Shown here in pieces: positions 33,354-37,172 of a stretch of DNA of 64,000 nt (position 1 is the stretch's first letter; each line of letters opens with the position of its first letter). This stretch comes from an uncultured delta proteobacterium (GTDB taxonomy: Bacteria; Myxococcota_A; Polyangia; Polyangiales; Polyangiaceae). The position numbers and the translations under genes were made by a program. Below the pieces are notes generated by a model, which searched no databases, was not told the DNA's origin, and was given only the letters and a program-made list of their open reading frames with translations. Where the stretch lies: the NCBI GenBank assembly GCA_963841435.1, contig CAWJCS010000005.1:1056001-1120000 (forward strand), given 5' to 3'.

Positions 33354-34271
33354 TCAGGACCCCGCCGCCATCAGCTCACGGAGCTTGGCCTCCACCTCGG
33401 CGAGGTGATCCGAGGAGTAACCCACGCTGACGTCGCGCACCGTCCCCTGCCGATCGAGCACGAAGAGCGTGGGCAAGGCCATGGCGCGGTAGGCGCGGCT
33501 CGTCCCTCCGTCCGGATCGGAGGCCACGGCGTAGTCGATGCCGAGCTCGACGCTCGCCTGAAGCGCGGACTCGGCCGGGTCGGTCGTGATGCCGATGACC
33601 GTGAGCCCACGCGCGCCGTAGCGATCGTGCCACGCGTTCAAGGTCGGAATCGCGAGGCGACAGGCGACGCACCACGACGCCCAGAAGTCGATGACCACGA
33701 CGCGCCCGCGCAGCTCGGTGAGATCGCTCGGCAAGCTGCCCTTGACGGTAGCGAGCGTTTGCCAGCGCGGCGCCGGTGCTCCGAGAAACTCCGAGCGCAT
33801 GAGCGCGTTCTGGTCGGGCCGTGCGTCGAGCGGCACGGCGAACAACCGCTCCGTCCCCGCGCGCAAAAGGCCGACGGGAAGACGCTCGCCGGGGTGGTGG
33901 AGCGACACGATGCGCACGACGTCCGCCGGGCCGAGCACGTTCTCGGCGGCCACGCTGACGATGACATCACCCGCCTGCAGACCGGCGCGTTCGGCGGGCG
34001 AGCCGCGAAGCACATCGCGAACGAGGACGCCCGGCTCACCGGGCGGGACGGCCGCGAGCTCGACGCCGAGCCATCCCGGCGCATCGGGATCGACCGCAGC
34101 GGCACCGGGCGCCGACTCGGGCGCCCTCCCGGCAGACATCGACGCCATCGGCATCGGCGACGCCGCGGCCACGGGTGGCGTCGCCCGACCGGCGCTGCAG
34201 CCGAGCGTGGCACCGAAGAGCGCGAAGAGCGCCGGCATGCGTTCGAGCCCGGCGACGACGCGATGAGCCAC
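33354..34271 (-). CDS. PDZ + TlpA/ResA-type thioredoxin lipoprotein
   Basis: Lipobox LGC; GWLGV..GSPAERAGLQAGDVI (PDZ); IDFWASWCVAC; start is GTG 34271 or ATG 34238. Confidence 0.85.
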   Translation of the reverse strand: MAHRVVAGLERMPALFALFGATLGCSAGRATPPVAAASPMPMASMSAGRAPESAPGAAAVDPDAPGWLGVELAAVPPGEPGVLVRDVLRGSPAERAGLQAGDVIVSVAAENVLGPADVVRIVSLHHPGERLPVGLLRAGTERLFAVPLDARPDQNALMRSEFLGAPAPRWQTLATVKGSLPSDLTELRGRVVVIDFWASWCVACRLAIPTLNAWHDRYGARGLTVIGITTDPAESALQASVELGIDYAVASDPDGGTSRAYRAMALPTLFVLDRQGTVRDVSVGYSSDHLAEVEAKLRELMAAGS

Positions 34272-34293
34272 GCCTTCGTGGTACCATGTTGGC

Positions 34294-34800
34294 CTGATCC
34301 GCGCAGCCCGACACCACGTTCTGCGCGGCGTCGCCACCGCCACCGTGCTCGCCGCGTGCAGCCCAGCCCCGGCGCCGCCACCACCGGTGCGAGCCCCGGT
34401 GGCGCACCCCGCGCCGCGCCCGACGTACGCTCGATTCGAAGAAGCGCTCGCGTGGCCGCCGATCGACAGCGCTCCGTTCGAGGTTCAAGGTCACCCGCGC
34501 GCGCAGCCGCTCGCCCTCACGCACGTGAGCCCCGACGCTCGCGAAGCGTACGGAGCGCTCGTCACCGACGGCGCCCTGCCCGACGGTTCCGTCGTGGCGA
34601 TGGAGCACCGCGGCGCCGACGGAGTCACTCGCGGCACCGTCTACGTCATGGAGAAGCGCGACGGCGCGTGGAGCTACCTCGAGGTCGATGCGCGGGGCGG
34701 GGTGCTGGATCCGGCCCCCACGCGGTGCCCGATCTGCCACGCCGGCGCCGTCGCCGATCACCTCTTCGGACCGCCGCGTCGGAAACCGCCGCGGGAATGA
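34294..34800 (+). CDS. cytochrome P460/c'-beta family lipoprotein
   Basis: LAAC lipobox; LPDGSVVAME, VMEK..W.Y, C-terminal CPICH..DHLF; start uncertain (CTG 34294 or GTG 34345). Confidence 0.7.
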   Translation: MIRAARHHVLRGVATATVLAACSPAPAPPPPVRAPVAHPAPRPTYARFEEALAWPPIDSAPFEVQGHPRAQPLALTHVSPDAREAYGALVTDGALPDGSVVAMEHRGADGVTRGTVYVMEKRDGAWSYLEVDARGGVLDPAPTRCPICHAGAVADHLFGPPRRKPPRE

Positions 34801-34872
34801 CTCTCGGCCTGAGGGCGTTTTCCCGAAGAGACCGGCTGGCGCCCATGGCGACCCCGGGCGGGCGGTCTTACG

Positions 34873-35055
34873 TACAAAAAGAGAAGGCCTGATGGCTGTA
34901 CCCATCAGGCCCCAAGGACCGATCCAGCGGAAAAGAAGCGGAAGGAAGACGAAGCAGTAAGGAAGCGAAAGGGAGGCGTCTTTGTGGGGCGCCTCATACG
35001 GGATCTCGCAGCGCACGGCGAGAAAAGAAGCGAGGCTTGCACGCCTCGATAAGTG
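34873..35055 (-). ncRNA. candidate sigma54-dependent small RNA (~180 nt)
   Basis: No credible ORF; sigma54 promoter upstream; three 6-bp hairpins, a CU-rich stretch and an intrinsic terminator. Confidence 0.6.
34876..34911 (-). terminator. intrinsic terminator
   Basis: Perfect 10-bp stem GGCCTGATGG/CCATCAGGCC with a 6-nt loop, followed on the minus strand by TTCTCTTTTT. Confidence 0.75.
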
Positions 35056-35065
35056 CCCCACTAAC

Positions 35066-35081
35066 TGCAGGGTCCGTGCCA
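35066..35081 (-). promoter_or_regulatory. sigma54 promoter
   Basis: TGGCACGGACCCTGCA, near-consensus. Confidence 0.7.
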
Positions 35082-35336
35082 CCCTGGAAGGGTTTCGCAT
35101 TTCCCTAGTATTTTCAGCGAGATGTACCTGGAACCGGTGCCGGATGGGCACTCTTCGATCGCTCGGCCCCTGGTTCTCGTGTCAGGGGGGTCCAGGGGGG
35201 CATGAAATCTTTTCCGAGCCCGCTTGCAGTGACGCTGGCGCGCGCCCCCTGCGCGCCACCTGGGGATAACCACCGGCCCCCCCGCGGAGGTGAGCCCCCA
35301 GCCGAGCGCACCGTGCTATGAGTCGCCCCCTTCCGA

Positions 35337-35410
35337 GCGCCCGTAGCTCAGCTGGATAGAGCACCGGTCTACGGAACCGGTTGTCGAAAGTTCGAATCTT
35401 TCCGGGCGCG
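35337..35410 (+). tRNA. tRNA-Arg(ACG), CCA not encoded
   Basis: Acceptor GCGCCCG/CGGGCGC; D arm GCTC/GAGC; anticodon arm CCGGT-CTACGGA-ACCGG; T arm GAAAG-TTCGAAT-CTTTC. Confidence 0.96.
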
Positions 35411-35830
35411 CCCGTAGCCACCAGGTGCGGCAGAGTCGACCCCCGTTGGCTCGACTCCTCGCCGATTCGACCTCCGTTCCGATCCGTGCGGCTCCGCAGC
35501 TCGACATGCGGTGACCACCGTCAGCGGGCCGACGGTTTCGAATCTTTCCGGGCGCGCCAGGCCACAGGGTCCGGCAGGGGCGGCCTCTGCAGCTCGACTC
35601 CTCGCCGATTCGACCTCCGTTCCGATCCGTGCGGCTCCGCAGCTCGACATGCGGTGACCAGCGTCAGCGAGCCGACGGTTTCGAATCTTTCCGGGCGCGC
35701 CAGGCCACAGGGTCCGGCAGGGGCGACCTCTGCAGCTCGACTCCTCGCCGATTCGACCTCCGTTCCGATCCGTGCGGCTCCGCAGCTCGACATGCGGTGA
35801 CCAGCGTCAGCGGGCCGACGGTTTCGAATC
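35391..35830 (+). repeat. tandem array of three 143-146 bp units plus an 8-bp stub, each beginning with the tRNA 3' end
   Basis: TTCGAATC starts at 35391, 35537, 35680 and 35823; units 2 and 3 are nearly identical. Confidence 0.95.
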
Positions 35831-35901
35831 GCGGGCATCGGCGTCGCGGCGTGTGGCCTCGCCGTCGAGCAATGCGGCTTCCCCCGCGTACCGCGACTTC
35901 G

Positions 35902-36927
35902 CTAGTTTTTCGGCAGCCAGGCCTCGATGAGACCGACCTCCGCGTCGGTGAGAACGCTGGCGGGAATTGCGGGCATCCACTCGGTTCGCTCCGACACGGG
36001 GATGGTGCCGTTGTTCGTGTGCCCGTCGCGAATGACGGCGAGAAACGCAGCGCCCTGCACATCGAAGGGCACCGAGTGGGCTACCATCACATAAGCATTC
36101 GTCGTTCCGCCGCGGCCTTCGGGACCGTGACAGTACCCGCAGTAGTCGGCGTACAGGTCCGCCCCCGTGGTCGGCTGGGGGAAGCCGCCGAGCCAAGTAT
36201 AGATGTCGTCGAGGATCGCGCTGGAGATGAGCTTCGGATCGACGGCCGGCATCGGATCTTTGTAGGGCACGATGGGCGTGTCGTCGCCGTTCTTCACCAT
36301 GAAGTCGAAGAGCTCTCGATTGGGGTGCCGGATTTCCGGCCCTCGGTCCTCGATGCCCTCGCCGTTGTCGCCGTGGCAGTTGCCGCAGCCGTAGTCGGGA
36401 TCGTTCCAAGCGCTCGTGCGATCCGTCGCGGGTTGCGCGCCGGCGGCACCCGCCGCGGCGGTGCCGGCGGCACCCGCCGCGCCTCCCGCCGCCAGGCCGC
36501 CCGAAGCGCCAGCGCCCGCCCCGCCGCTGGTCGCTCCGCCGCTGTTGGCTCCGCCGCTGCCGGCCCCGCCGCCGCTGGCCCCGCCGGTGCTGGCTCCGCC
36601 GGTGCTGGCTCCGCCCGCGGCCGCCCCAGTGCCCGCCGAGCCGCCGAGCCCACCGCTGTCACCACCGTTCGAGCCGCCAACGCCTGCCGCGGCGCCGGTC
36701 GCTCCCGTGAAGTCGCCAGCGGTGCCCGCCGTCGCGCCGGTGCTCGACCCCGCCGCCGCTCCGCCCGCGCCGCCGATCGCCGCCGCTCCCGCGCTCGCGC
36801 CCGGGGGCTCGGTCACTGCGTCGTCGCCCGAGCACGCGGGCAAAGCGCCGACGGCGAGTGGCCCGAGCGCGAGCAAGGCGGCGCGCAGCGAACGACGGGA
36901 GATCGGTCTCGGGGCGGTATCCTTCAC
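35902..36927 (-). CDS. di-heme c-type cytochrome lipoprotein with Gly/Ala linker
   Basis: AGGAG RBS + GTG; LPAC lipobox; CGNCH and CGYCH, each followed by an MP motif. Confidence 0.85.
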   Translation of the reverse strand: MKDTAPRPISRRSLRAALLALGPLAVGALPACSGDDAVTEPPGASAGAAAIGGAGGAAAGSSTGATAGTAGDFTGATGAAAGVGGSNGGDSGGLGGSAGTGAAAGGASTGGASTGGASGGGAGSGGANSGGATSGGAGAGASGGLAAGGAAGAAGTAAAGAAGAQPATDRTSAWNDPDYGCGNCHGDNGEGIEDRGPEIRHPNRELFDFMVKNGDDTPIVPYKDPMPAVDPKLISSAILDDIYTWLGGFPQPTTGADLYADYCGYCHGPEGRGGTTNAYVMVAHSVPFDVQGAAFLAVIRDGHTNNGTIPVSERTEWMPAIPASVLTDAEVGLIEAWLPKN

Positions 36928-37172
36928 GGTGGCTCCTGGCCTCGCTCGCGAGCGGGAGCGGTCGCTGCGACGGAAGCTAGCACGCCGATCCGTCACGGCC
37001 CGGCTTCATCGCGATCGATGGAGTGTCACGACGGGGCAGGGATCAGGCTGCGCGTGATGCACCCGGCCGCTCGTTGCCGCTCGTTGGAAAAGTGAGAACG
37101 GCAACGGAAGGTCAGCGCGCGCCGTTCGGTGGTGGAGGCGCTTTCCGCCAACGCTGTCCTCCCTTGTATTCC

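Follow-up and report, generated by a model that had tools for sequence, protein, structure and literature searches.

A predicted sigma-54-dependent small RNA with a pyrimidine-rich repeat tract in the Polyangiaceae

Base pairing is how most characterised bacterial small RNAs act. CrcZ is sigma-54 dependent through CbrB, and GlmY and GlmZ have sigma-54 promoters with GlrR as the activator. In RoxS/RsaE, LhrC and the actinobacterial 6C RNA, unpaired pyrimidine-rich motifs pair with G-rich ribosome-binding sites, and Hfq is dispensable or absent. According to the accessible part of one account, transcription of the Qrr RNAs uses LuxO-P with sigma-54, and CsrB/CsrC and CrcZ are decoys built from multiple binding motifs (PMC13501541). 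The myxobacterial RNA Pxr, as given in the available text of its description, is 108 nucleotides (nt) long with three stem-loops in a multi-stem fold and a predicted sigma-54 promoter; its gene is flanked by nla19, which encodes an activator, and by an NADH dehydrogenase gene, and its origin is reported to be within the Cystobacterineae (PMC5568312). Myxococcus xanthus is without Hfq, and the available portion of a preprint has Pxr and MXnc1 contacting multiple mRNAs near the Shine-Dalgarno (SD) sequence (preprint 10.1101/2025.09.11.675593). The present analysis concerns a locus in an uncultured member of the Polyangiaceae. It lies in a 64,000-nt stretch of contig CAWJCS010000005.1, called the window here, with positions counted from its first letter. 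Judging from sequence comparison, the gap between a gene for a 151-amino-acid (aa) protein and a tRNA-Arg(ACG) gene very probably encodes a previously undescribed sigma-54-dependent non-coding RNA on the minus strand.

Like Pxr of M. xanthus and other Cystobacterineae, as far as its available description goes, the predicted RNA is myxobacterial, apparently sigma-54-driven and multi-hairpin, and its host is without detected Hfq. Unlike Pxr in that description, it is ~181 nt long, has an added repeat tract and a separate terminator, lies between a haem-lipoprotein-like gene and tRNA-Arg, and belongs to the Polyangiaceae. There is no Sigma54_activat match within the 64-kb window and therefore no adjoining activator gene, unlike at pxr. 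The comparison with Pxr made in the first-pass annotation of this DNA is a good analogy but does not extend to membership, as the two descriptions are set apart by locus, size and taxon. Qrr1-5 of Vibrio and GlmY/GlmZ of the Enterobacteriaceae share the sigma-54 promoter class, each with a dedicated activator that binds upstream; those RNAs are linked to Hfq or RapZ and carry one conserved seed or decoy fold, whereas here there is a repeat tract and no Rfam match. Rfam 15 gave no match at E <=10 within the RNA in the window and none at E <=1 within the RNA in 8 divergent loci, in keeping with the first-pass term "undescribed". A weak YrlA match (E 0.04, below gathering) overlaps the tRNA and not the RNA. 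Full-text literature on small RNAs of Sorangium and the Polyangiaceae, with most subscription journals and supplements outside coverage, yielded no description of such an RNA. Given no shared motif, partner or model match with CrcZ, Qrr or GlmY, a locus, size and taxon unlike those of Pxr, and no account in the literature found, the RNA is filed as a putative new family of a known kind, the sigma-54-dependent stand-alone small RNAs; it may possibly be a new kind of decoy.

The intergenic gap spans 536 base pairs (bp), from the stop codon of the 151-aa open reading frame (ORF; 34800) to the tRNA gene. Its GC content is 0.58-0.63 versus 0.70-0.78 in the flanks, and the codon-position (third-position) GC signal of the flanking genes is missing inside it. 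The first-pass annotation had described a lower-GC gap of ~530 bp without a credible ORF, and had placed in it a minus-strand promoter, a start near 35055, three hairpins, a pyrimidine tract of ~55 nt and a perfect 10-bp stem with a U-run. All of these were recovered at the positions given in Table 1, the tract at 59 nt and the perfect stem inside a 12-pair terminator ending in CUCUUUUUGU; the start coordinate agrees with the one predicted from promoter geometry.

The promoter has the GG(-24)/GC(-12) spacing of TGGCAC-N5-TTGCW, with one departure (C for T before the GC) that is common to relatives. The pattern TGGCAY-N5-YTGC occurs at 68 sites on both strands of the 7.78-Mb genome, so that a 900-nt stretch of one strand would be expected to contain 0.004 of them. 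The first six homologues all have the promoter unchanged. In 18/18 strong homologues TGGCAY-N5-CTGC ends 8-10 nt before the match to a covariance model of the RNA; in the weak homologue G022 it lies 78 nt upstream. When loci were collected through the neighbouring protein gene, counting a promoter motif downstream of the 151-aa gene in antisense orientation, the motif was on the RNA strand in 55/58 loci from 17 Polyangiaceae genera and on the other strand in 1/58. The consensus across loci is TGGCAcGga..CTGCT, with unconserved flanks. Of the 68 sites examined in this genome, the other 67 have no comparably pyrimidine-rich stretch downstream and no such upstream elements around them. The genome encodes rpoN (Sigma54_DBD match, 220 bits) and has 52 Sigma54_activat matches, 40 of them with E <=1e-35, or about 40 enhancer-binding proteins.

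A sigma-54 promoter needs an activated enhancer-binding protein, and two candidate sites for one, P1 and P2, lie upstream. P1 takes the form CTGAAA-N3-TTTCAG or TGCAA-N4-TTGCA in relatives. Counted with loose patterns that were defined after inspecting the same sequences, P1 stands 119-157 nt (mostly 119-134) upstream of the promoter in 32/53 loci, and P2, as GACW-N6-9-CCAB, 65-126 nt (mostly 88-113) upstream in 44/53. The strict form of P2 occurs once in the genome, at this locus. An enhancer-binding protein may bind at these conserved elements, ~100-130 nt upstream of the promoter. An ACCGGT-centred palindrome between them and the promoter is restricted to one subgroup of relatives; it is present in this genome (G000) and in the upstream regions of L015, L068, L093, L067 and L059, and among the genome's 68 promoter-like sites it is found here only.

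The predicted transcript would begin at 35056-35054, at the start of the conserved GGCACUUAUCGAGG, and end in the U-run at 34883-34874. It would fold into three 5' hairpins (H1 to H3), followed by the tract and an intrinsic terminator. H1 was folded sequence by sequence because some alignment rows are misaligned there; it forms in 18/18 homologues with five stem sequences (GAGGC/GCCUC, GAGGCU/AGUCUC, GAGGCC/GGCUUC, GACGCG/CGCGUC and GAGACG/CGUCUC). The closing pair of H2 occurs as four pair types (UA 6, GC 5, CG 2, AU 1). The terminator contains the 10 perfect pairs GGCCUGAUGG/CCAUCAGGCC within its 12-pair stem; 98.1% of its alignment cells are paired, U-G wobbles are frequent, and one pair has changed in compensation from A-U to G-C. 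Two terminator-like sites were found in 34300-35800, both on the minus strand, against a mean of 0.7 in shuffles, and a terminator follows within 420 nt of the promoter in 50/55 loci. In the 18-sequence alignment 92.6% of cells are standard pairs, compared with 33-46% when partners are slid by 1-3 columns, and at six pairs both partners have changed. The alignment was fitted to the model and most stem positions do not vary, so the covariation, though real, is modest. Relatives keep the promoter, the hairpins, the tract and the terminator, which was the comparison the first-pass annotation had proposed.

Table 1. Features of the RNA locus and its neighbours (window coordinates; percentages are alignment cells paired)
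Feature	Position	Strand	Sequence	Remarks
Predicted transcript, ~181 nt	34874..35056	-		both ends predicted, from promoter geometry and U-run
Sigma-54 type promoter	35066..35081	-	TGGCAC-N5-CTGCA, TGGCACGGACCCTGCA	GG at -24 (35080-35079), GC at -12 (35068-35067)
Candidate upstream activator site P1	35201..35216	-	CGGAAAAGATTTCATG	palindrome-like, ~120-134 nt upstream of promoter
Candidate upstream activator site P2	35167..35185	-	CTGACACGAGAACCAGGGG	CCCCTG...CAGGGG inverted repeat, ~104 nt upstream of promoter
ACCGGT-centred palindrome	35127..35142	-	CGGCACCGGTTCCAGG	between upstream sites and promoter; one subgroup of relatives only
Hairpin H1	35031..35048	-	CGAGGC/GCCUCG	U-rich run follows
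Hairpin H2	35004..35023	-	UCUCGC/GCGAGA	96.8% paired
Hairpin H3	34973..34995	-	GAGGCG/CGCCUC	88.5% paired; 2 pairs changed on both sides
Pyrimidine-rich tract, 59 nt	34914..34972	-	CUUCCUUA	repeats CGCUUCC, UGCUUCG, UCUUCC, CGCUUCU
Intrinsic terminator	34874..34913	-	CUCUUUUUGU	12-pair stem (34913-34884), loop GUACAG, then the U-run sequence
151-aa protein gene	34345..34800	+		convergent neighbour; lipobox LAAC and C-terminal CPICH; used as anchor
tRNA-Arg(ACG)	35337..35412	+		divergent neighbour; context, outside the RNA

Two of the hairpins have further features. H1 together with the following CUUCUUUUCU (35030-35021) was flagged as terminator-like, ~25 nt past the predicted start, and the hairpin and its U-rich run are kept in 18/18 close homologues; a short abortive or attenuated product from H1 is conceivable. 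The terminator loop (34884-34913, minus strand) is GUACAG in this genome, but most close homologues have GUGCAG. In the genus's other body type the 5' hairpin is closed by that same GUGCAG loop (CUCGAGG-GGUGCAG-CCUCGAG; loci L114-L129), which contains the palindrome UGCA. In that commoner body type (L114, L118, L121 and other genus relatives) a second conserved hairpin, GCGAAAUGCACGCGCAUUUCG, follows the RNA terminator before the 3' end of the neighbour gene, and it may be a second or bidirectional terminator.

The strand of the RNA is indicated by features other than folding energy, which alone does not distinguish the two (z-score -2.04 on the minus strand and -2.36 on the plus strand). Stem cells with wobble-type changes are 40 G-U versus 13 A-C, or 31 versus 10 without H1, favouring the minus strand, and the U-run after the terminator hairpin is present on the minus strand only. 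The first-pass annotation had offered as an alternative a GGA-rich plus-strand transcript that would act as a CsrA/RsmA sponge; a small basic peptide is a second possible plus-strand product. The plus strand is indeed purine- and GGA-rich and folds equally well, and within the terminator hairpin, preceded by purine-rich sequence, is the start of a 22-aa ORF (MAVPIRPQ...). But CsrA (PF02599) was not found in this 95%-complete genome, the promoter motif is plus-sense in a single locus of the 58, and 34300-35800 gave no sigma-70-like promoter. In 6/18 homologues the terminator stem pair at the ATG of this ORF is U-G in place of U-A, so that the codon reads ACG, and an ORF of >=20 aa from that start is present in only 6/19. 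More generally, no ORF is common to all 19 homologues, and 4/19 are without any ORF of >=20 aa on either strand. The sponge alternative was thus not upheld, and a plus-strand product of either kind is very improbable.

The distribution of the RNA was followed in several ways, in genomes that are mostly metagenome-assembled, the related ones being non-independent samples. BLAST found the region in 5/36 other genus genomes and in 0/24 genomes from other families. The covariance model, R1, was built from six sequences running from the predicted start to the terminator, without promoter columns. It matches the window at 34872-35058 (G000:C5:1090872-1091058) with E 6.2e-38, as a single copy in the genome, and finds copies in 10/47 genus genomes, this one included. 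No paralogues were found by R1 beyond the single copy; GCUU clusters elsewhere in the genome are mostly coding repeats. A pattern scan of a species genome collection gave 7 model-positive records out of 29, all 7 titled Polyangiaceae bacterium, and a scan of metagenomes gave 14 out of 56. The 151-aa protein is present in 43/47 genus genomes, and among 30 fetched genus loci 28 have the strict promoter motif and the other two TGGCACGGA-GGTGC. (One unpublished genus genome, G033, counts only in the genus tallies of BLAST, R1 and the 151-aa protein.) In a draw from the family, the protein is found in 55/201 genomes and 30/89 Polyangiaceae genera; 25 of the 28 loci fetched have the promoter motif, adding 16 further genera. 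The locus is therefore much wider than R1 shows, because anchoring on the neighbour protein finds the promoter in 55/58 loci. The RNA bodies fall into at least three types that are not alignable end to end, with G022 as a weak bridge. On this comparative evidence the RNA locus is conserved across the Polyangiaceae.

Conservation of this kind could also reflect DNA without an RNA product of its own, for example a regulatory region of tRNA-Arg or a relic promoter. The region does lie upstream of a divergent tRNA gene in many loci: tRNA-Arg(ACG) adjoins it in 27/29 genus loci and in 12/28 of the further family-draw loci. In the other 16/28, however, the tRNA is absent within ~1.5 kb on either side of the 151-aa gene, and 13 of these 16 keep the promoter. 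The promoter, compensatory stem changes, strand-specific wobbles and terminator with its U-run are, moreover, conserved together. A purely DNA-level function is hardly probable.

A different alternative makes the region a cis element, in which sigma-54 transcription into the 3' end of the 151-aa gene controls that gene, by transcriptional interference or by pairing with a 3' untranslated region that runs through the RNA gene, and the repeats are incidental. The order carboxyltransferase (-), PDZ-peroxiredoxin (-, 33354-34343), 151-aa protein (+), RNA (-), tRNA-Arg (+) is kept in 23/23 loci tested, and the convergent arrangement recurs in the 55/58 anchored loci from 17 genera. Because no U-run follows the shared hairpin on the plus strand, the mRNA of the neighbour may continue across the region. 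Yet the terminator, present in 50/55 loci, would stop the RNA at least 74 nt before the neighbour's stop codon, and the conserved unpaired repeat array is left unexplained. In a second family of the order, the 151-aa protein is found in 6/9 genomes with a convergent coding gene in the RNA's place, and neither the promoter nor GCUU clusters were found in any of the 6 loci. The 151-aa protein therefore does not need the RNA, and control in cis is improbable.

The pyrimidine-rich tract reads CGCUUCCUUACUGCUUCGUCUUCCUUCCGCUUCUUUUCC in this genome. Over the 61 nt counted (34972-34912) it is 79% C+U and 3% A, and it is mostly unpaired in both the minimum-energy and the centroid folds. Motifs were counted in 50 transcripts delimited by promoter and terminator, the motif having been defined on the same sequences: GCUU occurs 320 times versus 160.7 in dinucleotide shuffles and CUUA 187 times versus 61.8. 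Each RNA has 3-13 copies of GCUU (median 6.5, versus 1.3 expected from base composition), and repeat spacings peak at 5 and 6 nt. Motif bases are unpaired more often than the rest in 44/50 RNAs (0.53 vs 0.42). In the genus, 12 species share a nearly unchanged 22-nt block, AGCUUCGCUUCCGCUUCCUUAG; repeats from other genera often read GCUUGGCUUAA or GCUUAGCUUAG, and in L128 there is a slippage-like expansion in which GCUUCGCU is repeated. The working part common to these RNAs appears to be an unpaired array of GCUU/CUUCCUUAG motifs.

The sequence of the genus motif suggests one way in which the array could act. The 3' end of 16S rRNA is CACCUCCUUUCU, so that CUUCCUUA is an imperfect copy of the anti-SD sequence. 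AAGGAAG is a possible partner for it, as is AAGGAGG if one G-U is allowed, and the genus motif CUUCCUUAG can pair with AAGGA(A/G)G. In the proposed mechanism, the activator bound at the upstream elements would drive transcription from the -24/-12 promoter to the strong intrinsic terminator. The product would display several copies of GCUU(C) and CUUCCUUA(G) in the unpaired tract behind its three 5' hairpins. Acting in trans and without Hfq, the repeats would serve as redundant seeds that pair with AAGGAAG or AAGGAGG in several mRNAs and block initiation once an upstream signal has activated the sigma-54 activator. This Hfq-independent pairing with purine-rich ribosome-binding regions is ranked first because small RNAs mostly pair, the genus motif is complementary to the SD, neither Hfq nor CsrA nor ProQ was found, and Pxr and MXnc1 are reported to contact mRNAs near the SD; it is put forward tentatively, at a little under even chances. 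In RoxS/RsaE, LhrC and 6C, the C-rich multi-seed small RNAs of Gram-positive bacteria, several unpaired pyrimidine-rich motifs are likewise present. Their motifs, unlike those here, are C-runs (CCCC, UCCC) mostly in hairpin loops, whereas CUUCC/GCUU lies in a long linear tract, and promoter type and phylum also differ.

Two other ribosomal RNA connections were tried and set aside. The boxA-like sequence of the rRNA leader, AUCCUUGAAAACU, shares only UCCUU with the repeats, and a boxA mimic was rejected as weak for that reason. Across the 3' end of 16S, CUAAGGAGC is complementary to GCUUCCUUAG with one G-U; pairing with this pre-16S 3' trailer was judged a by-product of the SD-likeness.

A number of observations weigh against the pairing reading. 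First, CCUCC, the true anti-SD core, occurs 11 times in the 50 RNAs and CUUCC 87 times. The family-wide core GCUU/CUUA (often GCUUGGCUUAA or GCUUAGCUUAG) contains G and A and is not SD-complementary in other genera. Second, repeat copy number and order change fast (3-13 per RNA, with 5-6-nt peaks), a pattern more typical of protein-binding arrays. Third, no extended complementary site was found. A 16-nt complement of the invariant block was found exactly only at the RNA gene itself among the matches listed (G028, G002, G070), and allowing <=3 mismatches gave fewer sites than the backwards control did (50 vs 214 in G070, for instance). Complementarity in the 5' regions of two neighbour genes was not above control (7.5 vs 6.9 nt and 8.0 vs 7.8 nt). 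Finally, R1 had 0 matches in 150 other family genomes, at the low sensitivity of strict filters with 16 candidates scored per genome, and common descent of the body types rests on synteny, promoter, motif content and terminator and not on full-length alignment. A genome-wide RNAduplex scan of purine-rich windows was uninformative, being dominated by long G-U-rich pseudo-duplexes with G-rich coding repeats. Of the first-pass proposal of an undescribed trans-acting anti-SD small RNA, the conserved sigma-54-promoted, terminator-ended non-coding RNA divergent from tRNA-Arg is therefore supported; the anti-SD mechanism is not supported in the same way, with GCUU/CUUA as the family-wide core and CCUCC rare.

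The same array could instead titrate a protein. In such a decoy the single-stranded GCUU/CUUAG motifs would bind and sequester many copies of an RNA-binding protein in the manner of CsrB/RsmZ or CrcZ and free its mRNA targets. The short motif in several copies per RNA with preferred spacings, its conservation while number and order vary between genera, the slippage-like expansion in L128, the preferentially unpaired motif bases and the failure of the searches to find extended complementary sites are all consistent with this. Candidate partners would be a cold-shock-domain protein, ribosomal protein S1, a KH-domain protein or Rho. On the other side, searches of this 95%-complete genome recovered no Hfq, CsrA, ProQ or TRAP, the GCUU clusters picked up by a genome scan were largely repeats within coding regions without an evident group of target leaders, and characterised bacterial small RNAs mostly pair bases. 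CrcZ of Pseudomonas and CsrB/RsmY/RsmZ likewise have, in the available part of the source that describes CsrB/CsrC and CrcZ as multi-motif decoys, short single-stranded motifs arrayed in differing numbers (PMC13501541). In those RNAs Hfq is bound by CA/A-rich motifs and CsrA by GGA, whereas this array is GCUU/CUUAG in a tract with hardly any A and neither protein was found. Protein titration is ranked second to pairing and is on balance unlikely. The fuller proposal makes the RNA the decoy arm in a post-transcriptional system of the Polyangiaceae not described before: a sigma-54 activator would switch on a GCUU/CUUAG array that soaks up a global RNA-binding protein not yet linked to small RNA decoys. 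This is somewhat less likely again; such a system would be a functional counterpart of Csr/Rsm or Crc/Hfq made from different parts.

The neighbourhood has several features of its own. The 151-aa protein has a lipobox-like LAAC near its N-terminus and CPICH, a CXXCH haem c motif, at its C-terminus; it has no Pfam or NCBIfam match and looks like an uncharacterised periplasmic haem lipoprotein. Its gene stands head to head with that of a PDZ-AhpC/TSA protein (33354-34343, minus strand), with nearly zero intergenic space. Directly 3' of tRNA-Arg(ACG) there is a 143-nt tandem repeat in three copies (35449-35877; 100%, 98% and 73% identity), and the tRNA's final 22 nt, TTCGAATCTTTCCGGGCGCGCC, occur at 35391, 35537 and 35680 (35391-35877, plus strand). 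The repeat could be the scars of integration or excision at the tRNA, or a local duplication. Further on, a GC-rich repeat with a 15-nt period and 8 copies in register (36481-36723) lies inside a minus-strand ORF (35902-36996) that ends in a cytochrome c domain, where local GC reaches 0.87.

The Polyangiaceae include large-genome, natural-product-rich soil bacteria, and sigma-54 activators number in the dozens in myxobacteria. In the literature searched, Pxr was the one sigma-54-linked small RNA known from this group, confined to another suborder, and a described small RNA of the Polyangiaceae was not found. The locus described here is a family-wide candidate with a clear promoter, ends and motif, and it makes riboregulation testable where Hfq, CsrA and ProQ were not found. 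The RNA gives a handle on which of the ~40 activators, and hence which signal, would control it. Should the array prove to be protein-binding, a new decoy system would be defined by it.

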